Source: Trichodesmium erythraeum IMS101 (GTDB lineage: Bacteria; Cyanobacteriota; Cyanobacteriia; Cyanobacteriales; Microcoleaceae). Taken from it: 32,000 bases of DNA. Every line of letters starts with the position of its first letter. Positions within the stretch are counted from its first letter, which is position 1. The stretch is from positions 6,630,001 to 6,662,000 of the forward strand of contig NC_008312.1 of the NCBI RefSeq assembly GCF_000014265.1, written 5' to 3'. The notes beneath the pieces were generated by a model that was not told where the DNA came from, ran no database searches, and saw only the letters and a list, made by a program, of their open reading frames with translations. Positions 800 through 15,853 of the stretch are shown here, piece after piece. The position numbers and the translations under genes were made by a program.

Positions 800-3268
800 T
801 TTGGTTTTGGCGATCGCTTTCCTATTCTTTTTTTTTGTTGAATAAATAATCATGTGTATGGGCGTGTTTGGCCTTATATTCATAGTTTATCAATTTTTTT
901 CAAAAGTCGCAACCCCTATACCTCTTTTTTTTTTTGAGCTCCACAGGATGAAAAATCTCGGTACAGTAAAGCAGCGCTTTGAATATTAGTTGATCAGCTC
1001 TATACCTCTTTTTTTTTCGGGGCTCCACAGGATGAAAAGTCTGGGTTCTGGGTAAAGTAAGTCAGCACTTTGAATACTAGCCTACCAGCTCTAATTTATT
1101 GATGATTTTTTGATGAGCTTCTTCTTAGACTTGCTTGCTTTGGTTTTCTTCAAGAGCGATCGCTTTCCTATTCTCTTTTTTGTGTTGAATAAATAATCAT
1201 CCGTATAGGCGTGCTTCCCCTTATATTTATAGTTTATCAATTTTTTTCAGAACTTGCAACTCCTATACCCCTTTTTTTCTTGAGCTCCACAGGATGAAAA
1301 ATCTCGGTACAGTAAGGCAGCACTTTGAATATTGGTTTGTCAGCTCTAATTTATTGATGATTTTTGTGATGAGCTTCTTCTTAGACTTGCTTGTCTTGGT
1401 TTTCTTCAAGAGCGATCGCCTTCCTATTCTCTTTTTTTTTGTTGAATAAATAATCATGAGTATGGGCGTAGTTACCCTTATATTCATAGTTTATCAATTT
1501 TTTTCAAAAGTCGCAACCCCTATACCTCTTTTTTTCGGAGCTCCACAGGATGAAAAGTTTGGGTAAAGTAAAGCAGCGCTTTGAATATTAGTTGCAATTC
1601 CCATACCTCTTTTTTTCGGAGCTTTACAGGATGAAAAGTCTGGGTAAAGTAAGTCAGCACTTTGAATACTAGCCTACCAGCTCTAATTTATTGATGATTT
1701 TTGTGATGAGCTTCTTCTTAGACTTGCTTGCTTTGGTTTTCTTCAAGAGCGATCGCTTTCCTATTCTCTTTTTTTTTGTTGAATAAATAATCATGAGTAT
1801 GGGCGTGTTTACCCTTATATTTATAGTATATCAATTTTTTTCAAAAGTCGCAACCCCTATACCTCTTTTTTCGGAGCTCCACAAGATGAAAAATCTCGGT
1901 ACAGTAAAGCAGCACTTTGAATATTAGTTGATCAGCTCTAATTTATTGATGATTTTTTGATGAGCTTCTTCTTTTTTTTTTCAGAGCTCCGCAGGATGAA
2001 AAATCTCAGTACAGTAAAGCAGTACTTTGAATATTAGTTGCAACTTCTACCCCTCTTTTTTTTCGGAGCCCCACAGGATGAAAAATCTGGGTACAGTAAA
2101 GCAGTACTTTGAATATTAGTTGCAACTTCTAGACCTCTTTTTTTTCCGGAGCCCCACAGGATGAAAAATCTGGGTACAGTAAAGCAGCACTTTGAATATT
2201 AGTTGATCAGCTCTAATTTATTGATGATTTTTGTGATGAGCTTCTTCTTAGACTTGCTTGCCTTGCTTTTCTTCAAGAGCGATCGCTTTCCTGCCCTCTT
2301 TTTTTTGTTGAACAAATAATCATGTGTATGGGCGTGCTTCTCCTTATATTCATAGTCTATCAATTTTTTTCAGAAGTTGCAACTCCTATACCTCTTTTTT
2401 TCTCGAGCTCCACAGGATGAAAAATCTCGGTACAGTAAAGCAGTACTTTGAATGCTAGTGGCAACTTCTAGACCTCTTTTTTTTCAGAGCTCCGCAGGAT
2501 GAAAAATCTCAGTACAGTAAAGCAGCACTTTGAATATTAGTTGATCAGCTCTAATTTATTGATGATTTTTGTGATGAGCTTCTTCTTAGACTTGCTTGTC
2601 TTGGTTTTCTTCAAGAGCGATCGCTTTCCTGTCCTCTTTTTTTTGTTGAATAAATAATCATGCATATAGGCGTGCTTCTCCTTATATTCATAGTCTATCA
2701 ATTTTTTTCAGAAGTCGCAACCCCCATACCTCTTTTTTTTTCAGAGCTCCACAGGATGAAAAATCTGGGTAAAGTAAAAAAAAGCAGCACTTTGAATATT
2801 AGTTGCAACCCTAGACCTCTTTTTTTCGGAGCTCCACAGGATGAAAAATCTCGGTAAAGTAAAAAAAAAAGCAGCACTTTGAATATTAGTTTGTCAGCTC
2901 TAATTTATTGATGATTTTTTTGATGAGCTTTTTCTATGACTTGCTTGCTTTGGTTTTCTTCAAGAGCGATCGCTTTCCTGTCCTCTTTTTTTTGTTGAAT
3001 AAATAATCATGCATATAGGCGTGCTTCTCCTTATATTCATAGTCTATCAATTTTTTTCAGAAGTTGCAACTCCTATACCTCTTTTTTTTTCTCGAGCTCC
3101 ACAGGATGAAAAATCTCGGTAAAGTAAGTCAGCACTTTGAATACTAGCCTACCAGCTCTATGATGATTTTTTGATGAGCTTCTTCTTAGACTTGCTTGCT
3201 TTGGTTTTCTTCAAGAGCGATCGCTTTCCTATTCTCTTTTTTTTGTTGAATAAATAATTATGTGTATG
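800..3268. repeat. Compound tandem array A: 8 long modules (~190 bp, each with one HIP1 GCGATCGC site) interleaved with 14 short modules (~75-85 bp, core GAGCTCCACAGGATGAAAAATCT(C/G)GGTA(C/A)AGTAAAGCAGCACTTTGAATATTAG)
   Basis: HIP1 sites lie at 810, 1156, 1412, 1749, 2279, 2617, 2966 and 3217, with spacings of 251-530 bp. The spacing depends on whether 1, 2 or 4 short modules separate them. Short-module cores start near 948, 1024, 1285, 1541, 1621, 1875, 1985, 2068, 2150, 2406, 2487, 2745, 2830 and 3095. An internally deleted long module lies at about 1931-1980. Confidence 0.95.
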
Positions 3269-3516: not shown

Positions 3517-6105
3517 CTATTCAAAAGTCCTGGGGGGGAAACTCACAAGACGAAAACCAATATAGAAGTTGTCCGCCTCGTCCGAGATACAGTAGGAGCG
3601 GGACGCAGAGCGACACCTCCAAGGATAGATGATCCAGGAGCCGCCACGAAGTACTTTTATACTATTTTTATTACTATTTTTATTACTGTTGATTCTAGCA
3701 CTTCCATCTGTAGGAGCTCCTACATAATTATTATACCTGTCGTCAGCACACCATTCATAAACGTTTCCGTGCATATCATATAAACCAAAAGCATTTGGTG
3801 GAAATTTACCTACAGGAGTTGTTTGGTTTCTATCTTCTCCTTTTGGCCCGTCGCCGTAAGTATCGTTGCCATTATAGTTAGCTAACTCAGGTGTTATGGT
3901 TTCTCCAAAGTAGAATGGTGTACTCGTTCCTGCACGACAAGCATATTCCCATTCGGCTTCACTGGGTAACCTGTACTTTCTTCCTGTTAGTTTTGATAGT
4001 CTTTTACAAAATTCTACTGCTTGGTTCCAGTTTACCTGCTCCACTGGTCTCTGCCATCTATCTATACTTTCGTATGGTTTAAAATATGATGGCTCTGGGT
4101 CTAGGTCTCGTTCTACTTTTATGTCTGTTCGAGTGGCGATCGCTTTCCACTGTCCTTGAGTTACTGGATATTTGCCCATAAAAAAGGAAGGAACAGTTAC
4201 CTGATGTTGGGGCCGTTCATCATCTTCGCTATCCTCTTCATTTTCAGGAGAACCCATGGTAAAAGTACCACCAGGAATATAAACCATTTCTAGCTCTACC
4301 TTTTCTCGAAGACTTTCTTTAAAGTATCGGGCAGAGTTAATATCTTCCTTAATAATTTCTCCTTTTTGGTTGACTTTGGGAGTTTTATACTCATACTTAA
4401 AAACCTCGATATCTGAGGGAAAAAATATTCCACCTGTTTCTAAGTTTTCAACAAAAGCTGTATAGTCTCCCCCTAGTTCTTTTAAGATATTAAATCCAAT
4501 TTCGGCAAAAGCTGGCACAGTTTCTTCCGTATTTGTAGGTAGTTTTAATAAGGCTACAAATTCTTTCATTGACTTCCCAAAATGCTCTTTTAAATATTGA
4601 GAAACTGCATCAAAAACTTTTTGAGAATCACTGACTGGAGCACTTTTTAATAAGATATTTCTAATTTTTTCGTCTACAAATTTATATTCTACTAATTCTG
4701 AGTTTGTGTCAGGAGTAATTTCTTGGGTTGGCTTTAATAAACCTCCTAAAAATACTTCGGCTGTATGAATAGGTAAAGCTTGTGATAAAAGTTTTGCTTG
4801 AATTATTCTGACTACGGGAAGGCATATCATTGGTGCGGCAGATAATAAGCTTGCTAATTTTCTGGCTATAGGAGAAGCGTTCATTCTAAAACGATGAACT
4901 CTTTTTTCTGGGTTTAATTTTTCAATTTTATTTTCTGGTAAATTTTCAGATTTTAGGTGAAGTTCATTTGGCAAAAGAAAGCCTGATACTAATGCTTCGG
5001 GTTTACCTATTAACATTTGACTCCAAACTTTTGCTAGTTCTGGTTGGAGAGTTAATATGGGAATTTTTATTCCTTGTTCTAATAAGAGATTTCTCCATAA
5101 CAAAAATTCTTTAATAATCAAGTTTTTGTTGCTATTTCCTGGTACTAAATTTTGTAGTTGAACTGAGGATCCTATTCTTAAACCTGTTCTTCTCCACATC
5201 CAGTCTGGTAACATTTGTAAAATTGCTAATGGTTGGTATTCTCCCCATTCTCGTAAGGTTGATAGTATTGAACCGTCATGCCAAAAGGGTGCAATACAAT
5301 CACTTACTATTAATATTAAACGACGACCTGTTCTGTCTATTAATTCTTGAGTTTTAGGGAAAGTTTTTTGTTTTCCTATTCCTGCTGTTAGTAAAATTTT
5401 ATCTGAGTTTTTTTGATTTTTTTGAGTGTATTTTTGTTTTTGAATTGCTGCTAATTCTTGAGGGTATAGTCGGCATATTTTTACTTCTCGAAAGATGCCA
5501 TAATTTTTGAGGAGTTGTTTTAATTCTTTGATGGTGTGTTGCCATAAAGTCATTGATTTATATTTGTCTATGACTAAAACTAGGTCTAACCAAGGTTCGG
5601 GTTCTGATTTTAATATTGGAATACAAATACCGCTTTTGGCTGTTTGGTTTACGGTTTCTATTTCGTCTAAGGTTGTTTTTTTTGGGGAGTTTACTTTTTG
5701 CATTAGAGGTTGTAATGCTTTAGCGAATTCTAATGGTTTTGGTATTGAGGGGGCGTCGGGTATTCTTAAGGGTAAGTTTTTTTGAGTGTCTATTTTTTGT
5801 TTGGTGTTATCTCTAATGTCTAAATAAATAAGGGTTGTTTTTTGGGGAGTTTTAGGATGTGGGGTTGATGTTATTTTTTTAGGGGTATGGGGGGGTGAGT
5901 TGGGATGGATGTTTGGTTTTTTCTTATTTTGATTATCAATGTTTGTTTGGGTTTTGGTTGATTTTTTGGTTGGTATTAGTTCTTGGCGTTTTAATGATAA
6001 CCATAATATTTCGGCTATTTCTCTTCCGGTAAATTCTAGGTCTATACCTAAAGTTTTGATTAGTTTTTCAATTTTTTGTTGTTGATTATTATTGGGAGAT
6101 TTCAT
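3517..6105 (-). CDS. Multidomain protein: SAV_2336-like N-terminal helix, P/T/K-rich linker, vWA-like domain with a degenerate MIDAS motif, helical middle region, and C-terminal formylglycine-generating-enzyme (FGE-sulfatase/CLec) domain
   Basis: The N-terminus has REIAEILWLSLKRQ, the ELADALWLA-type motif of vWA partners of MoxR ATPases. The vWA-like core has LDLVLVIDKYKSMTLW, then RRLILIVSDCIAPFWHDGSI, then PLAILQMLPDWMWRRTGL. FGE hallmarks are MVYIPGGTFTMGSP, YRLPSEAEWEYACRAG, GLYDMHGNVYEWCAD and LRGGSW...GFRLV. The MIDAS reads D-K-Y-K-S instead of DxSxS. Confidence 0.85.
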   Translation of the reverse strand: MKSPNNNQQQKIEKLIKTLGIDLEFTGREIAEILWLSLKRQELIPTKKSTKTQTNIDNQNKKKPNIHPNSPPHTPKKITSTPHPKTPQKTTLIYLDIRDNTKQKIDTQKNLPLRIPDAPSIPKPLEFAKALQPLMQKVNSPKKTTLDEIETVNQTAKSGICIPILKSEPEPWLDLVLVIDKYKSMTLWQHTIKELKQLLKNYGIFREVKICRLYPQELAAIQKQKYTQKNQKNSDKILLTAGIGKQKTFPKTQELIDRTGRRLILIVSDCIAPFWHDGSILSTLREWGEYQPLAILQMLPDWMWRRTGLRIGSSVQLQNLVPGNSNKNLIIKEFLLWRNLLLEQGIKIPILTLQPELAKVWSQMLIGKPEALVSGFLLPNELHLKSENLPENKIEKLNPEKRVHRFRMNASPIARKLASLLSAAPMICLPVVRIIQAKLLSQALPIHTAEVFLGGLLKPTQEITPDTNSELVEYKFVDEKIRNILLKSAPVSDSQKVFDAVSQYLKEHFGKSMKEFVALLKLPTNTEETVPAFAEIGFNILKELGGDYTAFVENLETGGIFFPSDIEVFKYEYKTPKVNQKGEIIKEDINSARYFKESLREKVELEMVYIPGGTFTMGSPENEEDSEDDERPQHQVTVPSFFMGKYPVTQGQWKAIATRTDIKVERDLDPEPSYFKPYESIDRWQRPVEQVNWNQAVEFCKRLSKLTGRKYRLPSEAEWEYACRAGTSTPFYFGETITPELANYNGNDTYGDGPKGEDRNQTTPVGKFPPNAFGLYDMHGNVYEWCADDRYNNYVGAPTDGSARINSNKNSNKNSIKVLRGGSWIIYPWRCRSASRSYCISDEADNFYIGFRLVSFPPRTFE

Positions 6106-6343
6106 AAGAAAGAATAAGGGGTAGGATAATTAAATAGTGGAATAATAGTGAAATAATTTTAAGTTTGGTTTAGGTGAGCAGTTTGTTTGGTTTCAGGAGT
6201 ATTTAAGGTAAAAGTAAGAATATTAATATTGCTGTTTAATGTTTATTTTTTTAGTTTTGTTTTGATGGCAATTTTAAGTTTGTTACTATTACTATTATTT
6301 TTATTATTATATGATTTTAGTTATAGTGGCAAATATCATAAAT

Positions 6344-6481
6344 AATGAAAATATTTTAATATACTTTTATGGCTATAAAGTAATAATTTAAATGAATCAA
6401 TATTCTAGTTCTAATGAAAATCCTTTAATATACTTTTATGGCTATAAAGTAATAATTGAAATGAATCAATATTCTAGTTCT
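6344..6481 (+). repeat. Tandem duplication of 2 x 69 bp (66/69 identical) covering the mtnB 5' leader and start codon
   Basis: Copy 1 is 6344-6412 and copy 2 is 6413-6481. Each contains ATGAATCAATATTCTAGTTCT. The codon before the ATG is TAA in copy 1 and GAA in copy 2, so both ATGs (6392 and 6461) are in frame. Confidence 0.9.
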
Positions 6482-7164: not shown

Positions 7165-10100
7165 TCGGCTAATGGTGCTTAACAAAGGAGGCCAAGGGTA
7201 AAAATAACTGTAGGTTGGGTTGAAGCACGAAACCCAACAGACAGTGGTTGGCAGATAATAACTTTAGGTTGGCTAATGGTTTTATGAAGTAGGTGTGATG
7301 TTTCTGTTGGTTTTGATTTTTTTTGCCTAACTTAGGTTTTATGGTTTTTTGGTGGAATAATTTTTGGGCGGAATAATTTTTTGGTGGAATAACTGTAGGT
7401 TTGGTTGAGGTACAAAACCCAGGAAAAGCTGGTTGGCAGATAATAACTTTAGGTTGGCTAATGGTTTTATGAAGTAGGTGTGATGTTTCTGTTGGGTTTG
7501 ATTTTTTTTTGCCTAACTTAGGTTTTATGGTTTTTTGGTGGAATAATTTTTTAGCGGAATAATTTTTTGGTGGAATAACTGTAGGTTTGGTTGAGGTACA
7601 AAACCCAGGAAAAGCTGGTTGGCAGATAATAGCTTTAGGTTGGCTAATGGTTTTATGAAGTAGGTGTGATGTTTCTGTTGGGTTTGATTTTTTTTTGCCT
7701 AACCTAGGTTTTATGATTTTTTGGTGGAATAATTTTTTGGTTGAATAATTTTTTGGTGGAATAACTGTAGGTTTGCTTCAGGTACAAAACCCAAGACAAG
7801 GTGGTTGGCAGATAATAACTTTAGGTTGGCTAATGGTTTTATGAAATAGATGTGATGTTTCTGTTGGTTTTGATTTTTTTTGCCTAACCTAGGTTTTATG
7901 ATTTTTTGGTGGAATAATTTTTTGGTGGAATAATTTTTTGGTGGAATAATTTTTTGGTGGAATAACTGTAGGTTTGCTTCAGGTACAAAACCCAAGACAA
8001 GGTGGTTGGCAGATAATAGCTTTAGGTTGGCTAATGGTTTTATGAAATAGATGTGATGTTTCTGTTGGGTTTGATTTTTTTTTGCCTAACTTAGGTTTTA
8101 TGATTTTTTGGTGGAATAATTTTTGGGCGGAATAATTTTTTGGTGGAATAACTGTAGGTTTGGCTGAGGTACAAAACCCAAGACAAGGTGGTTGGCAGAT
8201 AATAACTTTAGGTTGGCTAATGGTTTTATGAAATAGATGTGATGTTTCTGTTGGTTTTGATTTTTTTTGCCTAACCTAGGTTTTATGATTTTTTGGTGGA
8301 ATAATTTTTGGGCGGAATAATTTTTTGGTGGAATAACTGTAGGTTTGGTTGAGGTACAAAACCCAGGAAAAGCTGGTTGGCAGATAATAGCTTTAGGTTG
8401 GCTAATGGTTTTATGAAGTAGGTGTGATACTTCTGTTGGTTTTGATTTTTTTTGCCTAACCTAGGTTTTATGATTTTTTGGTGGAATAATTTTTGGGCGG
8501 AATAATTTTTTGGTGGAATAACTGTAGGTTTGGTTGAGGTACAAAACCCAAGACAAGGTGGTTGGCAGATAATAACTTTAGGTTGGCTAATGGTTTTATG
8601 AAGTAGGTGTGATGCTTCTGTTGGTTTTGATTTTTTTTGCCTAACCTAGGTTTTATGATTTTTTGGTGGAATAATTTTTGGGCGGAATAATTTTGTGGAA
8701 TAACTGTAGGTTTGGTTGAGGTACAAAACCCAAGACAAGGTGGTTGGCAGATAATAACTTTAGGTTGGCTAATGGTTTTATGAAGTAGGTGTGATGCTTC
8801 TGTTGGTTTTGATTTTTTTTGCCTAACCTAGGTTTTATGATTTTTTGGTGGAATAATTTTTGGGCGGAATAATTTTGTGGAATAACTGTAGGTTTGGTTG
8901 AGGTACAAAACCCAAGACAAGGTGGTTGGCAGATAATAACTTTAGGTTGGCTAATAGTTTTATGAAATAGGTGTGATGTTTCTGTTGGGTTTGATTTTTT
9001 TTTGCCTAACCTAGGTTTTATGATTTTTTGGTGGAATAATTTTTTAGCGGAATAATTTTTTGGTGGAATAATTTTTTTGTGGAATAACTGTAGGTTTGGT
9101 TGAGGTATAAAACCCAGGAAAAGCTGGTTGGCAGATAATAGCTTTAGGTTGGCTAATGGTTTTATGAAGTAGGTGTGATACTTCTGTTGGTTTTGATTTT
9201 TTTTGCCTAACCTAGGTTTTATGATTTTTTGGTGGAATAATTTTTTAGCGGAATAATTTTTTAGCGGAATAATTTTTGGGTGGAATAACTGTAGGTTTGG
9301 CTGAGGTACAAAACCCAGAAAAAGCTGGTTGGCAGATAATAACTTTAGGTTGGCTAATAGTTTTATGAAATAGATGTGATGCTTCTGTTGGTTTTGATTT
9401 TTTTTGCCTAACTTAGGTTTTATGATTTTTTGGTGGAATAATTTTTTGGTGGAATAATTTTTTGGTGGAATAACTGTAGGTTTGGCTGAGGTACAAAACC
9501 CAAGACAAGGTGGTTGGCAGATAATAGCTTTAGGTTGGCTAATGGTTTTATGAAATAGATGTGATGTTTCTGTTGGTTTTGATTTTTTTTGCCTAACCTA
9601 GGTTTTATAATTTTTTGGTGGAATAATTTTTTGGTGGAATAATTTTTTGGTGGAATAACTGTAGGTTTGCTTCAGGTACAAAACCCAAGACAAGGTGGTT
9701 GGCAGATAATAGCTTTAGGTTGGCTAATGGTTTTATGAAATAGATGTGATGTTTCTGTTGGGTTTGATTTTTTTTTGCCTAACTTAGGTTTTATGATTTT
9801 TTGGTGGAATAATTTTTGGGCGGAATAATTTTTTGGTGGAATAACTGTAGGTTTGGCTGAGGTACAAAACCCAAGACAAGGTGGTTGGCAGATAATAACT
9901 TTAGGTTGGCTAATGGTTTTATGAAATAGATGTGATGTTTCTGTTGGGTTTGATTTTTTTTTGCCTAACCTAGGTTTTATGATTTTTTAGCGGAATAATT
10001 TTTTGGTGGAATAATTTTTTGGTGGAATAACTGTAGGTTTGCTTCAGGTACAAAACCCAAGACAAGGTGGTTGGCAGATAATAACTTTAGGTTGGCTAAT

Positions 10101-10531
10101 GGTTTTATGAAATAGATGTGATGTTTCTGTTGGTTTTGATTTTTTTTGCCTAACCTAGGTTTTATGATTTTTTGGTGGAATAATTTTTTGGCGGAATAAT
10201 TTTGTGGAATAACTGTAGGTTTGGTTGAGGTACAAAACCCAGAAAAATCTGGTTGGCAGATAATAACTTTACGTTGGCTAATGGTTTTATGAAATAGGTG
10301 TGATGCTTCTGTTGGGTTTGATTTTTTTGCCTAACCTAGGTGTTATGATTTTTTGGTGGAATAATTTTTTGGTGGAATAATTTTTTGGTGGAATAACTGT
10401 AGGTTTGCTTCAGGTACAAAACCCAGGAAAAGATGGTTGGCAGATAATAACTTTAGGTTGGCTAATGGTTTTATGAAATAGATGTGATGCTTCTGTTGGT
10501 TTTGATTTTTTTTGCCTAACTTAGGTTTTAT
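7165..10531. repeat. Tandem array B: about 18 units of 182-203 bp filling the whole gap between the convergent 3' ends of mtnB and the MoxR-like gene; each unit contains 3-4 copies of a nested 16-nt sub-repeat GGTGGAATAATTTTTT
   Basis: The landmark CTGTAGG recurs at 7208, 7393, 7579, 7765, 7966, 8152, 8338, 8522, 8704, 8886, 9089, 9289, 9474, 9659, 9845, 10031, 10213 and 10398. The ~200-bp units carry a fourth 16-mer. A two-unit block starting at 7966 appears identical by eye for more than 300 nt to one starting at 9659 (offset 1693). Confidence 0.95.
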
Positions 10532-10563
10532 AAGTTTTTAGAGATTTATAAATTTTCAAAATT

Positions 10564-11658
10564 TTATTGACTTAAATTTTTAAACAAAATTTCCTTAAGA
10601 GACTCAATATTATTATCATCTTGAGGACTATTTGACTGAGTTAATATATGAATTGTATTGAGTAACTGATCTGTTGCTCTGTCAAATGCTTCACCTTCTT
10701 CTTGTTTGGGCAAAAATTCTTTAATTAATTCCCCAATATAGTCCTGATTTTGATTATACAATTCATCTCCGAAATGAGCTTGAACAATACTTTTTAAAGC
10801 TTCCTCTTTTGGGTCTGGCATTGTCACTCTTAAACAACGTCGTTTAAATGCGGGAGGAAAATCTCTTTCTCCATTACTTGTCATTACAATAATAGGAAAA
10901 GCTGCACATTTTACTTTTCCAGTTTTGAGGGTTACTTTGTCTTCATCTTGTGTCCAAACTGTAAATTGTTGTGGAGATTCTTGTGAAAATTCTTGTGAAG
11001 ATTCTGCTGATTTTCTAGATTTACTTCTACGCATTAATTCGGGAATAATAAATTCTCCTTCCTCAAAAATATTGAGTAAATCATTGGGTAAATTAATATC
11101 ACTTTTATCAACTTCATCTATTAATAAAACCCGAGGAAATTGAGAAGGTAAAAATGCTGTACCTAAGGCACCTAATGTAATATATTCTCCAATGTGTTGT
11201 TCTTTTTTTAATTGAGCATCTTGTAACCTGGCAATAGCATCATAACGATATAGTCCATCTTGTAAAGCAGACCTTGCTGTAATTGACCAAGATAATACAG
11301 TTCCCAAACCTAATTCATAAGCAATGGCATAAGCAAGGGATGTTTTGCCAGAACCTGGTTTTCCAGTTATTAATAAAGGTCTTCTCAAATAAATTGCTGC
11401 GTTAACACTGTTAATTACATCTTTTGCTTCTTTTTGTTGTTGAGGAAGTCGAAAGTTTTTACCTCTTTCTAATCCTTTTTTTTGTTGTTTTGCTAATTTT
11501 CTTAATTCTAACCATCTACTGTCAATTCCTTTTTCATTTACTTTAATATCTGTTGTTTCCCCAAATTTACGCCAAGGAGGAGGCTCTATATTTAAGAGTT
11601 TTTTTTCAACTCCTTTTTCTTTAATTCCATTCCCTTGAAATAAATGCCAATGGCTCAT
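10564..11658 (-). CDS. MoxR-like AAA+ ATPase (the type that partners vWA proteins)
   Basis: Walker A is GKPGSGKT (codons at 11341-11364, verified on the DNA). Walker B is VLLIDEVD. The sensor region has FKRRCLRV. The N-terminus has a PPPWRKF motif, and LRRPLLITG precedes the P-loop, as I recall for MoxR ATPases of vWA-MoxR conflict systems. Confidence 0.85.
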   Translation of the reverse strand: MSHWHLFQGNGIKEKGVEKKLLNIEPPPWRKFGETTDIKVNEKGIDSRWLELRKLAKQQKKGLERGKNFRLPQQQKEAKDVINSVNAAIYLRRPLLITGKPGSGKTSLAYAIAYELGLGTVLSWSITARSALQDGLYRYDAIARLQDAQLKKEQHIGEYITLGALGTAFLPSQFPRVLLIDEVDKSDINLPNDLLNIFEEGEFIIPELMRRSKSRKSAESSQEFSQESPQQFTVWTQDEDKVTLKTGKVKCAAFPIIVMTSNGERDFPPAFKRRCLRVTMPDPKEEALKSIVQAHFGDELYNQNQDYIGELIKEFLPKQEEGEAFDRATDQLLNTIHILTQSNSPQDDNNIESLKEILFKNLSQ

Positions 11659-11687: not shown

Positions 11688-13400
11688 TTACCCAAAAGTG
11701 TAGGCATCGTCTTCTTCAAATCTTGATAAAATTCGGTAAGGGTTATCACATAAAAATCCTAAGCCATATCCTAGTTTTTCTTCATTGTTATCATCAATAT
11801 AAGCTTCTTCTCGTAATTTTTTTATGGAATTTAAAAGACTGGTTAAACTTTTAATATCTTGCAGTGTTAAGATTTGCAGAAAGTTTGTTTTTAACTTTTC
11901 AGGAGTATATTTAAGGTTAATACTCCATAATGCAATGGGAATTCCAGCAATAATAATTGCTTTCATAATCTCTTTGATTTCTTGAATATTTTTTAAAGGT
12001 GAAATAATGTTTATTCCTATTTTTTGATTGTCTCTTAAACGTGCTTCTAGTATTTTCCATTTTTCATAGCGACTATGATGTTCAAATTTATTTTCAATTA
12101 TTTCTGAAGTTAATGGTGACTGGGATATAAAAAAATCATTTACTTCTTGCCAGTTATTTTCTAATCTCAGTAAATATTCACGATTATTTTGATAAGTTTC
12201 AAATCTTTCCAAAATTCTAAAAGTTAATGGGTGCTCACAACAAAGCTTTCTACTTTCTCCTGCAAATAGTGTTGAATTTTTTATTGGTAAAGGGATAGCT
12301 TCCATGGGCTTTAAAAAATATTTGATAGGCAAGAATAATTCAATAATGATTGACGGCTCAAACCTAATATTACTATTTCGAGAACGATAATGTTGTAATT
12401 TCCAATAACTTTTCTGAATAAATTTTTTAAGACAGTTTCCTATTTTTTTGAAGTTTTTTGCACATCTAACAGCTTGTGTTTGCTCCTGAATATAAATAGG
12501 TTTTTGTTTCAGAATTTTCTTACTATGATCTTTTTCTAGGACTAACTCACCTTGCAATAGTAAATCAGAACCAGCATCTTCTAAACTTATTAATAAGTAA
12601 GGCTGAATTTTTTCTGTGGGCAAGAATTTTGATAGATTTTTATTTTTTTCTTGAGTCTTTAATAGGGTATCTTTTTTCTGGAGTCGAGCAGTAAATTTTG
12701 AAAGCCATATTTTTAAATTAGATCTACTTTCCTTTTGTTTTTGAGTCTCTAATTGAATATTTAGTTGATGAGAAACTTCTGAAACCCATGTTTTAAATTC
12801 ATTGGGAATGGTAGATTTTGTTGGAAGATAATTAGGGTTTGATAATATTGTCTGAAGTGATATATCTATTTGTTCATATGGCATTCTGCTTAAATAATCA
12901 ACAAATTCTAAAACTACGGGAATTTCTCTTGAACTTTGCTCTCGTTTTTTAATTAAATTATCTTTTAAAGTATCTTGAGTTTCTTCAGCTTCTAAGGATT
13001 TTAAGTTAATTAATCTTGGATCAACTTCCACAATTTCTTTTGGTTGAAAGGTTTCCTGAAAAGCTAAATCTAAATAAGTTGGATGAATCTGAGAGAGTAA
13101 TTTATATAACTTTTCCCATTGTTTTTCGGTAATGTAGAAAAGTTGATAAGTTATGTTTTTAATTGGCAAATTATGGGGATTTTGATCATTAGCTCCCCAA
13201 ACTAAGTCTAATAGTTTATTTTGACTTTCAGCCCATTCAATTAATGCCAGAATAACATTGTCAAGAGGGTCTCGTTTAACAATCTCCTCAAGATTTTTTT
13301 CTAGATTTAATCTAAACATTATTCTAAGTTGATCATAGCTTCGATAGCCATCTTCTAAAGCTTTAAATAGATATTTCCTTTCAGATTTAGACAAGTTCAT
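11688..13400 (-). CDS. 570-aa protein: N-terminal effector-associated-domain (EAD)-like helical module (residues ~1-80) plus a large K/E/L/I-rich domain without a P-loop; candidate VMAP-like (vWA-MoxR-associated) scaffold
   Basis: Residues 1-77 align without gaps to the N-terminus of the protease at 14783-15853, with 35/77 identical by my own count. No GxxxxGK[ST] motif is present. The gene lies directly upstream of the MoxR-like gene. The VMAP assignment rests on context only. Confidence 0.6.
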   Translation of the reverse strand: MNLSKSERKYLFKALEDGYRSYDQLRIMFRLNLEKNLEEIVKRDPLDNVILALIEWAESQNKLLDLVWGANDQNPHNLPIKNITYQLFYITEKQWEKLYKLLSQIHPTYLDLAFQETFQPKEIVEVDPRLINLKSLEAEETQDTLKDNLIKKREQSSREIPVVLEFVDYLSRMPYEQIDISLQTILSNPNYLPTKSTIPNEFKTWVSEVSHQLNIQLETQKQKESRSNLKIWLSKFTARLQKKDTLLKTQEKNKNLSKFLPTEKIQPYLLISLEDAGSDLLLQGELVLEKDHSKKILKQKPIYIQEQTQAVRCAKNFKKIGNCLKKFIQKSYWKLQHYRSRNSNIRFEPSIIIELFLPIKYFLKPMEAIPLPIKNSTLFAGESRKLCCEHPLTFRILERFETYQNNREYLLRLENNWQEVNDFFISQSPLTSEIIENKFEHHSRYEKWKILEARLRDNQKIGINIISPLKNIQEIKEIMKAIIIAGIPIALWSINLKYTPEKLKTNFLQILTLQDIKSLTSLLNSIKKLREEAYIDDNNEEKLGYGLGFLCDNPYRILSRFEEDDAYTFG

Positions 13401-14340
13401 TATTGTGATTGTTTAATTTAATCAAGTTACATTTTTTCTAAAAATATTAGAGCTATAAATTTGGATTAATTTGCTTTAAAGTTTTAGCTATAAATAGCCT
13501 GCAAATAATTAATATAAATATTTTTTTAGAAATAGCGATCGCTCAATAGATATTTGATTTTAAATTGAGATTGGTTGATTATCATTGTGCTTATTTAATT
13601 AATTTAATTTACGTTGTATTCAAATAAATTATAGGCATAATTTTGTATTAATTTGCCTTAATATTTTATCTATAAATATCCTGAAAATAACTAATATAGA
13701 TATTTTTTTAGGAGTAGCGATCGCTAAATATATATTTGATTTTAAATTGAGATTGGTTGATTATCATTGTGCTTATTCAATTAATTTAATTTACGTTATA
13801 TTCAAATAAATTATAGGCATAATTTTGTATTAATTTGCCTTAATATTTTAGCTATAAAGATCCTGAAAATAACTAATATAGATATTTTTTTAGGGGTAGC
13901 GATCGCTCAATATATATTTGATTTTAAATTTAAATTAGTTGATTATCATTGTGCTTATTTAATTAATTTAATTTACGTTGTATTCAAATAAATTATAGGC
14001 AAATTTTGTATTAATTTGCTTTAAAATTTTAGCTATAAATATCCTGAAAATAACTAATATAGATATTTTTTTAGGAGTAGAGATCGCTCAATATATATTT
14101 GATTTTAAATTTAAATTAGTTGATTATCATTGTGCTTATTTAATTAATTTAATTTACGTTGTATTCAAATAAATTATAGGCAAATTTTGTATTAATTTGC
14201 TTTAAAATTTTAGCTATAAATATCCTGAAAATAACTAATATAGATTTTTTTTTAGGAGTAGCGATCGCTCAATATATATTTGATTTTAAATTTAAATTAG
14301 TTGATTATTATTGTGCTTATTCAATTAACTTAATTTACGT
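13398..14340. repeat. Tandem array C: about 5 units of 181-182 bp, an amplification of the entire spacer between the membrane-protein stop and the 570-aa gene start
   Basis: HIP1 or its degenerate form occurs at 13535, 13717, 13899, 14080 (GAGATCGC) and 14261. The junction motif TTTACGTT occurs at 13611, 13793, 13975, 14156 and 14337, with a diverged copy at 13429. The last unit overlaps the final codons of the 14325-14747 gene. The first unit overlaps the ATG at 13398-13400. Confidence 0.95.
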
Positions 14341-14747
14341 TTTTCTAGAGGAATTAGAGGAATAACTACTGTATAAAGCACCATTAATATTGAGCCATAA
14401 ATAGGCTGATACCAACTAATAGAAATAAATGGTTTTCCACCAATAGCGATCGCCCAAACTATAAATGCTCCTACGGAAATAATCCCTTGTTTAATAGTAG
14501 GTTTCTTCTTTGAACTGACTGGTAATAAACAAATATAAGCGAAAGTTAAGAACAAACAAAAAATAAATATTCCCCATAAAATACTATTTTCAGGAACATT
14601 ATTGTTTCCTTCTACCATAGTTTTAATAGTAATCCATACTCCTACTATTTCTGAAGGAATATATTTCACTATCTTGTCGAAATAATTATCTATATCAGAT
14701 TTTGTTTCTGATGCTTGTAGTTCAGTTTCAATAATAGAACGGTTCAT
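14325..14747 (-). CDS. Small integral membrane protein (140 aa; soluble ~30-aa N-terminus, then 3-4 predicted transmembrane helices)
   Basis: Hydrophobic stretches are ILWGIFIFCLFLTFAYICLLPV, GIISVGAFIVWAIAIGG and IYGSILMVLYTVVIPLIPL. The start is 35 nt after the protease stop. I recognise no family. Confidence 0.65.
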   Translation of the reverse strand: MNRSIIETELQASETKSDIDNYFDKIVKYIPSEIVGVWITIKTMVEGNNNVPENSILWGIFIFCLFLTFAYICLLPVSSKKKPTIKQGIISVGAFIVWAIAIGGKPFISISWYQPIYGSILMVLYTVVIPLIPLEKRKLS

Positions 14748-14782
14748 ATTTTTCAGTAATTTAATGATTTAATAAATAGAAT

Positions 14783-15853
14783 TTAGTTAAGTTGAATTGA
14801 TTTTTGTTCTAAATCATGATGAATAGAACTAAACAAAATACCTTCACGAATAGTGCCAAAATATTTAGAACGTTGAGCATGATGTAAAGCTACTAATTCT
14901 CCATTTTCATTAAAACAGGGTGAACCACTGGAGCCTCCTGCTGTTCTATTAATATACTGAACTAATCCACTATGAGGATAAACTCCTGTAATTCCATCAC
15001 AAGTAATAGAAAGTTTCATTGATTCTCCATTGGGATGTTGTAGAATATTAATACTATCAGCTTCAGAGAGGAAAATATGAGGCTGCCATTTAGCAGGTTT
15101 AATCTTTGTATCTTCTGAATCTAAAGCTTGACTAAAAGTTTTTTCAAGCTGTAGTAAAATATAATCAAGTTCTCCTACAGGACTAGAGGAAATAATAGGT
15201 TTTTCAGAATCTAATAAAAAGGATTTTGATGTGCTTTCTCTACTGTTATTTAAACTAAAACAGCCAAAACTAATACGAATATTCTTGGCATTTAACTCAA
15301 GATTATTATTGTTATTTTGTTTAAGCACATGATAATTAGTTAAAACATATTTTGAAGCAATTAATACCCCTGTTGCTGTAATATTTAGATTTGGTACATC
15401 AAGCCGACAAACTGATTTAGCTTGCTCAATAATTTTCTGCAAAAATCCTACATCATACCAATCTGGTTGTTTTTTAAATAATCCTTGTAATTCAATTTGG
15501 TCAGTTTTTCCATGCCAATCAATATTCGGACCAAAATCTCTAATGGGAGTCAAATCATAATCTAAAATTGCTCTTTTCTGAAAGTCTTTTGAGATTGTGT
15601 GAAAAAATTTTTTTAACTTTTGATTATCAGGATTTTGTTCATAAGCTCCTATAATTAAAGACTTTAATTTTCCCCGAGCTTCTGCTGAGTCAATTAAATT
15701 AAAAACGACTGTTTCTAAATCACCTTTCCCGGCAAATCTTTCTAAATTTTCTTCTAACTTAAATCTAACCATTCTTTGAAGCTTGCCATAGTCTCTATAA
15801 GAATCTAATAAAGCTTCAAATAGTTCTTCAGTTTCAAAACCTGATAATGTCAT
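14783..15853 (-). CDS. EAD-like N-terminal domain fused to a trypsin-like (S1/Trypsin_2-type) serine protease
   Basis: The catalytic triad is recognisable: H175 (LTNYHVL), D230 (GELDYILLQL) and S309 (TAGGSSGSPCF; Ser codon at 14927-14929, verified on the DNA). The N-terminal 77 residues are paralogous to the N-terminus of the 570-aa protein. Confidence 0.85.
   Translation of the reverse strand: MTLSGFETEELFEALLDSYRDYGKLQRMVRFKLEENLERFAGKGDLETVVFNLIDSAEARGKLKSLIIGAYEQNPDNQKLKKFFHTISKDFQKRAILDYDLTPIRDFGPNIDWHGKTDQIELQGLFKKQPDWYDVGFLQKIIEQAKSVCRLDVPNLNITATGVLIASKYVLTNYHVLKQNNNNNLELNAKNIRISFGCFSLNNSRESTSKSFLLDSEKPIISSSPVGELDYILLQLEKTFSQALDSEDTKIKPAKWQPHIFLSEADSINILQHPNGESMKLSITCDGITGVYPHSGLVQYINRTAGGSSGSPCFNENGELVALHHAQRSKYFGTIREGILFSSIHHDLEQKSIQLN

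Follow-up and report, generated by a model that had tools for sequence, protein, structure and literature searches.

On the minus strand of a 32,000-nucleotide (nt) stretch from the genome of Trichodesmium erythraeum IMS101, hereafter the window, whose positions serve as coordinates throughout, two genes encode proteins that begin with the same kind of small domain. One (14783-15853) encodes a 356-residue trypsin-like serine protease (Tery_4310 = ABG53305/WP_011613631), and the other (11688-13400) a 570-residue protein (Tery_4308) that combines its N-terminal domain with a helical middle region and a C-terminal VMAP-C domain and is called VMAP below. The matched domains, residues 1-85 of each protein, are encoded on the minus strand at 15599-15853 in the protease gene and at 13146-13400 in the VMAP gene, and belong to the effector-associated domain (EAD) family EAD1 of Pfam (PF19955). 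The protease and VMAP genes are two genes apart on the same strand, an arrangement that recurs in related loci (L007-L011 and L014), and their surroundings hold genes for a conserved membrane protein, for an AAA+ ATPase of the MoxR type and for a vWA-type protein with a C-terminal FGS domain. Judged by sequence, the two N-terminal domains are paralogous EAD1 copies in a VMAP-type MoxR-vWA ternary conflict system.

An earlier note on this stretch had described the two open reading frames, placed the domains in their first 85 codons and counted 35 identities in an ungapped match of 77 residues. Reading frames, domain positions and identity count were all recovered exactly, and over the full 85 residues the ungapped match holds 36 identities. 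Chance does not account for it: BLASTP between the two 85-residue segments gives 68.9 bits (E = 3e-22, 0 gaps), and 100,000 shuffles of one segment produced a maximum of 18 identities, with 0 reaching 36. The statement that the proteins share nothing further also stands, the two remainders (residue 86 to the end) giving no BLASTP match at E ≤ 10. At the DNA level the 255-nt segments are identical at 150 of 255 nucleotides, a level that points to an ancient duplication, as opposed to a recent copy or an artefact of assembly. The suspected EAD assignment was borne out by Pfam, whose curated cut-off for EAD1 is 24.2 bits: the protease domain scores 64.6 bits (residues 1-83, E = 1.2e-17) and the VMAP domain 49.2 bits (residues 1-84, E = 7.6e-13). 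Public protein names carry the same assignment, since UniRef calls Tery_4310 an 'Effector-associated domain-containing protein' and NCBI names near-identical proteins of both the protease and the VMAP cluster, from metagenome-assembled genomes (MAGs), 'effector-associated domain EAD1-containing protein'.

VMAP ternary systems and the EADs were defined by Kaur, Burroughs, Iyer & Aravind (eLife 2020; PMC7159879), who reported that an EAD at the VMAP N-terminus usually goes with a second copy encoded by the adjacent gene and joined there to a domain with an enzymatic or effector role. The window presents this pattern component by component. EAD1 is here a small, non-enzymatic, all-alpha terminal domain, 85 residues long on both proteins, with one copy on the core (VMAP) and another on a nearby effector (the trypsin-like protease). 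The effector is a chymotrypsin-fold (S1) serine peptidase by profile match (Pfam Trypsin_2, residues 160-323, E = 1.2e-17) and by its intact His/Asp/Ser triad (H175/D230/S310). Its closest solved relatives (PDB 6e0u and 1qtf, E = 5e-8) are staphylococcal exfoliative toxins and V8-type glutamyl endopeptidases, which are Glu-specific, and the three residues line up with the catalytic ones of these enzymes. The third component is identified by a VMAP-C match on the 570-residue protein (PF20028, residues 346-554, E = 1.5e-15), and close orthologues of this protein show a VMAP-M1 match in the middle region.

The remaining two components are equally recognisable. The MoxR-type ATPase (364 residues; 10564-11658, minus strand; Pfam AAA and AAA_5) has intact Walker A (GKPGSGKT, residues 99-106) and Walker B (LLIDEVD, residues 178-184) motifs, and WHLFQG and PPWRKF in its N-terminal part correspond to WxhapG and PsWRxa, motifs that Kaur et al. 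describe as peculiar to the MoxR proteins of these systems (PMC7159879). The vWA-type component with its variable C-terminal effector domain is Tery_4304 (862 residues; 3517-6105, minus strand), in which NCBIfam SAV_2336_NTERM covers residues 27-511 (E = 4e-121) and FGE-sulfatase, the FGS domain with its C-type lectin fold, residues 606-854 (E = 3.5e-59). Tery_4304 has no direct match to a Pfam vWA model and no canonical DxSxS metal ion-dependent adhesion site (MIDAS) motif; in 14 related loci its orthologue, 41-69% identical, is encoded immediately after MoxR or at a distance of a few hundred bases. Exact-sequence database matches were obtained for the window proteins Tery_4310, Tery_4309, Tery_4308, ABG53302 and Tery_4304.

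EAD1 on both proteins, VMAP-C, the MoxR and vWA-FGS neighbours and the published pattern (PMC7159879) thus support the view, put forward in the earlier note, of an EAD-type adaptor pair on an effector and a non-enzymatic core. The idea is not new. EADs have been proposed as homotypic coupling adaptors by analogy with the Death fold (PMC7159879; the 2021 paper, PMC8195603), and the interpretation given in the note corresponds to this accepted published prediction. The adaptor pair is already known, its family, system and homotypic hypothesis having been published in 2020-2021 and taken up in Pfam and in NCBI protein names. The locus tags and accessions of this particular locus matched nothing in the literature searched or in the supplement of Kaur et al., where the organism alone is listed.

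Conservation and modularity were followed in 23 related loci obtained by a pattern scan, with one genome per species, and annotated by local BLAST and hidden Markov models (HMMs). The five-gene module of this system is conserved in several cyanobacterial genera. Three other Trichodesmium MAGs, Okeania, Crocosphaera and a Microcystaceae MAG have EAD1-protease, membrane protein, EAD1-VMAP and MoxR in a tight colinear series, and vWA-FGS follows MoxR in Okeania, Crocosphaera and the Microcystaceae MAG; the vWA gene was not seen in the three Trichodesmium MAGs because their contigs end at or soon after MoxR. The pair of EAD1-protease and EAD1-VMAP is conserved in at least four genera, and a vWA-FGS orthologue stands directly or a few hundred bases after MoxR in Crocosphaera, the Microcystaceae MAG, Calothrix, Mastigocoleus, Richelia and Nostoc. 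Nostocales-type relatives retain the core of EAD1-VMAP, MoxR and vWA-FGS with a different adjoining EAD1 protein. The effector thus changes between trypsin, TIR and CHAT with EAD1 retained: next to EAD1-VMAP, Calothrix encodes EAD1-TIR, whereas Scytonema and one further MAG encode CHAT-EAD1. Conversely, a metagenome contig (L030, 281-4034) carries the protease and membrane-protein cassette, 75-79% identical to that of the window, before an EAD1-iSTAND protein and a MoxR that is 37% identical to the window MoxR. The effector swaps and EAD1 stays, and one cassette serves both VMAP and iSTAND cores, which is the behaviour expected of a plug-in adaptor.

A census of EAD1 partners points the same way. 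It consisted of a Pfam analysis of 56 strong EAD1-only matches, a subset of the 145 top matches of an exhaustive profile search. The partners were VMAP-C (15), EAD7 (15), Trypsin_2 (5), EAD8 (4), CHAT (3) and EAD2 (2), with TIR, SAVED, GUN4, NYN, AAA and FGE found once each; DNA-binding and housekeeping families were absent from the 56 proteins. That EAD1 might be a generic module occurring independently of such pairs, a possibility that the earlier note had raised, is accordingly not what we find, since its partners in this sample are all conflict-system domains. The profile of the exhaustive search grew to 514 positions, spanning EAD1 and VMAP, so that its 5,657 matches mix relatives of EAD1 and VMAP-C and do not measure the size of the EAD1 family. 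Homologue searches with the 85-residue EAD1 recovered 4 (single sequence) and 14 (27-sequence profile) short proteins and are useless as a census.

Structure prediction adds a fold for the adaptor. AlphaFold2, run with a 22-sequence alignment, models the protease EAD1 as a six-helix bundle (pLDDT 94, pTM 0.83), and EAD1 in the full-length AlphaFold2 model of VMAP shows the same helix pattern. That full-length model (pLDDT 87.5) consists of EAD1, helices at residues 92-245, a low-confidence linker and an alpha/beta domain at residues 263-551. The Foldseek matches that cover the full length of EAD1 with a TM-score of at least 0.5 all have the Death fold (best TM-scores 0.54-0.58), none of them significant. 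They include a CARD-like domain from a trypsin-like protease of the bacterium Lysobacter (8srz; TM-score 0.57, root-mean-square deviation 3.6 Å over 85 residues, E = 3), 6jcc (TM-score 0.57), a design named after 1CY5, and CED-4/CED-3, Apaf-1/caspase-9 CARD and CARD8. We take 1CY5, the namesake of that design, to be the Apaf-1 CARD. A Death/CARD-like fold for EAD1 is suggested by these predicted structures, not established by them.

On this basis we propose, with a probability of about 70% for the mechanism as a whole, that the locus encodes a protease activated by recruitment. The sensor would most likely be the hypervariable FGS lectin domain on the vWA protein, the fast-evolving middle region of VMAP, or both; Dore et al. 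2023 (bioRxiv) offer an alternative division of roles in which the vWA-lectin protein, diversified by a diversity-generating retroelement (DGR), is the sensor and the effector belongs to the VMAP side. Assembly of a VMAP scaffold would be gated by the MoxR ATPase with its vWA co-chaperone, which would set a threshold. At the assembled scaffold, EAD1 of VMAP would bind EAD1 of the protease homotypically, so that the protease would be concentrated and activated only there, and the recruited enzyme would then cleave downstream targets. Our best guess at these targets, a speculative one, would be the membrane protein encoded between the two genes, the linker of the vWA-FGS protein, or both, and as an outcome the infected cell of the filament might stop growing or die.

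Several observations weigh against this mechanism. Searches of the literature found no experimental work on EAD1, and Foldseek against the PDB with the protease EAD1 model gave no significant match (all E > 1). The membrane protein as a target of the protease is speculation. Tandem arrays and an opposite-strand gene, described below, interrupt the module, and co-expression in this genome is therefore not assured. Within a locus the EAD1 domains are 42% identical in the window and 40-56% across the clade; between genera the identity is 65-86% on the protease side and 39-69% on the VMAP side, from which it follows that the EAD1 duplication predates the split of Trichodesmium, Okeania and Crocosphaera. 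The adjacent copies are consequently not each other's closest relatives here, contrary to the tendency noted by Kaur et al. for adjacent EAD copies to be mutual closest relatives, a statement of those authors and not a membership criterion, which does hold in Calothrix (L016, 62%) and Scytonema (L024, 60%). In comparisons with the Trichodesmium MAGs and Crocosphaera, the ratio of non-synonymous to synonymous rates (dN/dS), imprecise over 85 codons, is 0.22-0.31 for the protease EAD1, the same as for the catalytic domain and thus equally constrained, a point in favour of the mechanism, and 0.52-0.68 for the VMAP EAD1, faster than the rest of VMAP (0.28-0.44). The VMAP copy evolves about twice as fast at non-synonymous sites as the protease copy, which is not what simple one-to-one co-evolution predicts.

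The divergence within the locus and the unequal rates do not refute pairing, and they leave room for a rival in which the two EAD1 domains each dock on the same third component, such as the aromatic N-terminal motifs of MoxR or a peptide-binding vWA domain, and not on each other. Matched EAD types in neighbouring genes fit this arrangement equally well, the unequal rates are easier to square with separate constraints on the two copies, and a third, divergent EAD1-like segment in the vWA proteins of Crocosphaera and the Microcystaceae MAG hints at multi-way docking. We nonetheless regard a shared docking partner as rather improbable: the same EAD1-protease cassette stands beside VMAP and iSTAND cores whose MoxR proteins are only 37% identical, EAD1 pairs also occur in GTPase-centred and NucA systems that have neither MoxR nor vWA (PMC7159879), and the predicted EAD1 fold resembles domains that act homotypically.

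Homotypic contact itself need not take the form of a simple 1:1 dimer. EAD1 might instead form a helical filament of the CARD/Pyrin kind, nucleated by oligomerised VMAP and drawing in many proteases. Among the structures that EAD1 resembles best are CARD8, which forms filaments, and the Apaf-1/caspase-9 CARDs, some proteins from the exhaustive profile search have 4-7 EAD1-like stretches in tandem, and the same parallel was drawn in the 2021 paper of Kaur et al. (PMC8195603). With Foldseek giving no significant structural match, we hold such seeded polymers to be possible, if doubtful. A further rival would make EAD1 an autoinhibitory or regulatory pro-domain of the protease and the VMAP copy an uncoupled leftover of domain shuffling. 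EAD1 is indeed N-terminal, like many protease pro-regions, and a linker of about 70 residues separates it from the catalytic core. This reading is nevertheless highly improbable, for the pairing recurs with non-protease effectors such as TIR and GUN4 and, C-terminally, on CHAT proteins, and both copies are kept in at least four genera; that both genes of every locus should have kept their copy by chance is not plausible. Recruitment of the protease to VMAP through EAD1-EAD1 contact remains our preferred mechanism.

The membrane protein between the two genes, here called TM140, is the only element of the locus that lies outside the published descriptions that we read. It has 140 residues (Tery_4309; 14325-14747, minus strand) with hydrophobic segments at residues 55-78, 88-108 and 115-135, and no family for it was found in Pfam, NCBIfam, PADLOC or the PDB. 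Its place in the locus is that of the 'trypsin co-occurring' genes known from the literature. Matching no Pfam family, it does not match the Trypco1 or Trypco2 models either; identity with Trypco1/Trypco2 was rejected, the best Pfam match over seven orthologues being DUF350 (E = 0.0057). A metagenome scan for TM140 added only four loci, each with the same protease partner. TM140 directly follows the EAD1-protease in 11 of 11 loci examined (the window, L007-L011, L014 and L030-L033), one of them with an iSTAND core in place of VMAP, and is 51-87% identical across them. TM140 could be the executioner or a substrate of the EAD1-recruited protease, the two together forming a portable cassette of protease plus membrane killer that plugs into different NTPase cores via EAD1, although we consider this unlikely at present. 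If true, cyanobacteria would possess in this cassette a functional counterpart of the CARD-protease-gasdermin axis that uses an unrelated membrane protein.

The locus differs from its relatives in its spacing. The protease and VMAP genes had been taken to share an operon, and they are indeed co-oriented; between them, however, lie the TM140 gene and a 925-nt gap filled by a tandem array. This array (13455-14341; 4.9 copies of a 182-bp unit; Tandem Repeats Finder (TRF) score 1543, 94% matches) begins within the final 17 nt of the TM140 gene and stops 55 nt short of the start codon of VMAP, and every unit contains a GCGATCGC site. The Trichodesmium MAGs MAG_R02 and MAG_R03 are without it, and their TM140 and VMAP genes are about 20 nt apart. 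A second array (7203-10539; 18-19 copies of 185 bp; TRF score 5285) lies directly downstream of the MoxR gene and separates it from the rest of the system; it contains nested 16-bp ATTTTTTGGTGGAATA repeats (x 3-4) and has a G-over-C skew of about 0.5. In two short-read assemblies of the same species (L001 and L003) the gap between MoxR and mtnB is about 600 nt, and the 185-bp array is therefore collapsed or variable there. The MoxR and vWA-FGS genes are 4.4 kb apart in the window, with the 3.3-kb array and an opposite-strand mtnB-like gene between them, so that the order and strand of VMAP, MoxR and vWA are kept and their contiguity is broken. Repeat arrays have thus invaded the presumed operon in T. 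erythraeum IMS101.

Other features of the flanking DNA can be stated briefly. The mtnB-like (Aldolase_II) gene has a 69-bp direct duplication at its 5' end (two copies; 6343-6481, plus strand), in which the MNQYSSS start of the protein recurs. Downstream of the vWA-FGS gene there is a third tandem-repeat set (1000-3262; periods of 82, 256 and 338 bp, 84-94% matches). The three arrays of the window are mutually unrelated in sequence. A promoter scan of the window returned 31 promoter-like sites where 34.7 were expected, which is chance level, and a terminator scan was likewise uninformative. Rfam had no match in the window. PADLOC has no model for this system and gave weak generic AAA and protease matches alone.

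The vWA-FGS protein has features of its own. Between Tery_4304 and the conspecific metagenome copy (L003), about 30 of 79 differences fall in the last ~150 nt of the 2.6-kb gene, and this hypervariable 3' end of the FGS domain (3517-3680, minus strand) looks like a DGR variable region, a resemblance drawn from the clustering of differences alone. The last ~150 nt are also relatively G+C-rich. The T. erythraeum DGR targets at least 12 FGE-sulfatase genes (PMC4143802), and Kaur et al. describe FGS as the typical vWA-fused domain of cyanobacteria and about 80% of cyanobacterial VMAP systems as DGR-linked. The vWA-FGS proteins of Crocosphaera (L010, 4696-7761) and the Microcystaceae MAG (L014, 9016-11946) hold divergent EAD1-like segments at residues 575-641 and 539-607, respectively, which an independently built clean HMM detects with E = 2e-5 and E = 7e-7; these segments lie between the vWA region and FGS and are too weak for Pfam. 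The vWA proteins of the window and of Okeania are shorter and have no such segment.

VMAP itself also yielded some side observations. Its C-terminal part is reported not to be unifiable with known domains. Foldseek on the full VMAP model returned weak matches to RNase H-like folds, the best being EndoV (E = 0.028), with TM-scores of at most 0.33 on the target. For residues 263-551 (11688-12610, minus strand), which are modelled with confidence, the weak PDB matches were nearly all RNase H-like folds (EndoV, NurA, RNase H1 and hexokinase/Hsp70), and they are insufficient to assign VMAP-C to that fold. A second locus in Trichodesmium MAGs (L012, 6344-9874; L013, 1799-5311) encodes a CHAT protease with a C-terminal EAD6-like domain, a 345-residue protein and an EAD6-like-GUN4 protein. 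The 345-residue protein combines EAD1, a VMAP-M1-like region and EAD6 and shares 55% identity with the VMAP of the window across 213 residues; it appears to bridge the EAD1 and EAD6 networks.

With the adaptor idea itself in print, this locus is of value because it offers a clean and compact example, and does so in a filamentous, bloom-forming nitrogen fixer of ecological importance for which programmed cell death is under debate. For a first direct test of the EAD hypothesis, the five-gene modules that are colinear in Crocosphaera (L010, 408-7761) and in the Microcystaceae MAG (L014) would make convenient constructs. We believe that four elements are worth carrying forward: TM140, the cassette common to VMAP and iSTAND cores, the asymmetric rates of the EAD1 copies and the arrays in the presumed operon.

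Compared with known systems, the locus stands closest to the VMAP systems of Kaur et al., with which it shares the EAD1 family, an N-terminal copy on VMAP and a second one on a neighbouring trypsin-like peptidase, a MoxR with the WxhapG and PsWRxa motifs, a vWA protein with C-terminal FGS and a filamentous host. It departs from them in that a 3.3-kb array and an opposite-strand gene interrupt the succession of VMAP, MoxR and vWA, in that the adjacent EAD1 domains are old paralogues (42%) and not nearest relatives, and in that the trypsin is accompanied by a conserved membrane protein and not by Trypco1/2. Its vWA protein, linked to MoxR and VMAP and ending in FGS with a hypervariable last ~150 nt, also recalls the ternary systems with a DGR-diversified FGS/C-type-lectin 'antigen sensor' (Dore et al. 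2023; Pfreundt et al. 2014), although the window contains neither a template repeat nor a reverse transcriptase.

Two more distant parallels concern the adaptor. Phage defence by gasdermin in Lysobacter depends on the CARD-like domain of a trypsin-like protease (PMC10312443; Wein et al. 2023, PDB 8SRZ), which sets an experimental precedent for Death-fold adaptors on enzymes of this kind. That system differs from ours in lacking detectable sequence similarity (Foldseek E = 3) and in its partners, the core here being VMAP/MoxR/vWA and not an NLR-like ATPase and TM140 not being a gasdermin. The likeness lies in a small N-terminal domain, of six helices in the model predicted here, on a trypsin-like protease in an NTPase-regulated operon, with the protease gene adjoining a gene for a membrane-acting or membrane-embedded protein. 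The apoptosome of Apaf-1 CARD and caspase-9 CARD differs in its protease (cysteine and not serine), its scaffold and its NTPase family, which makes the comparison an analogy with, possibly, a remote fold relationship only (TM-score ~0.55); in both, scaffold and protease carry the same small helical adaptor, and NTPase-gated proximity activation, as proposed here, would be the principle that they share.

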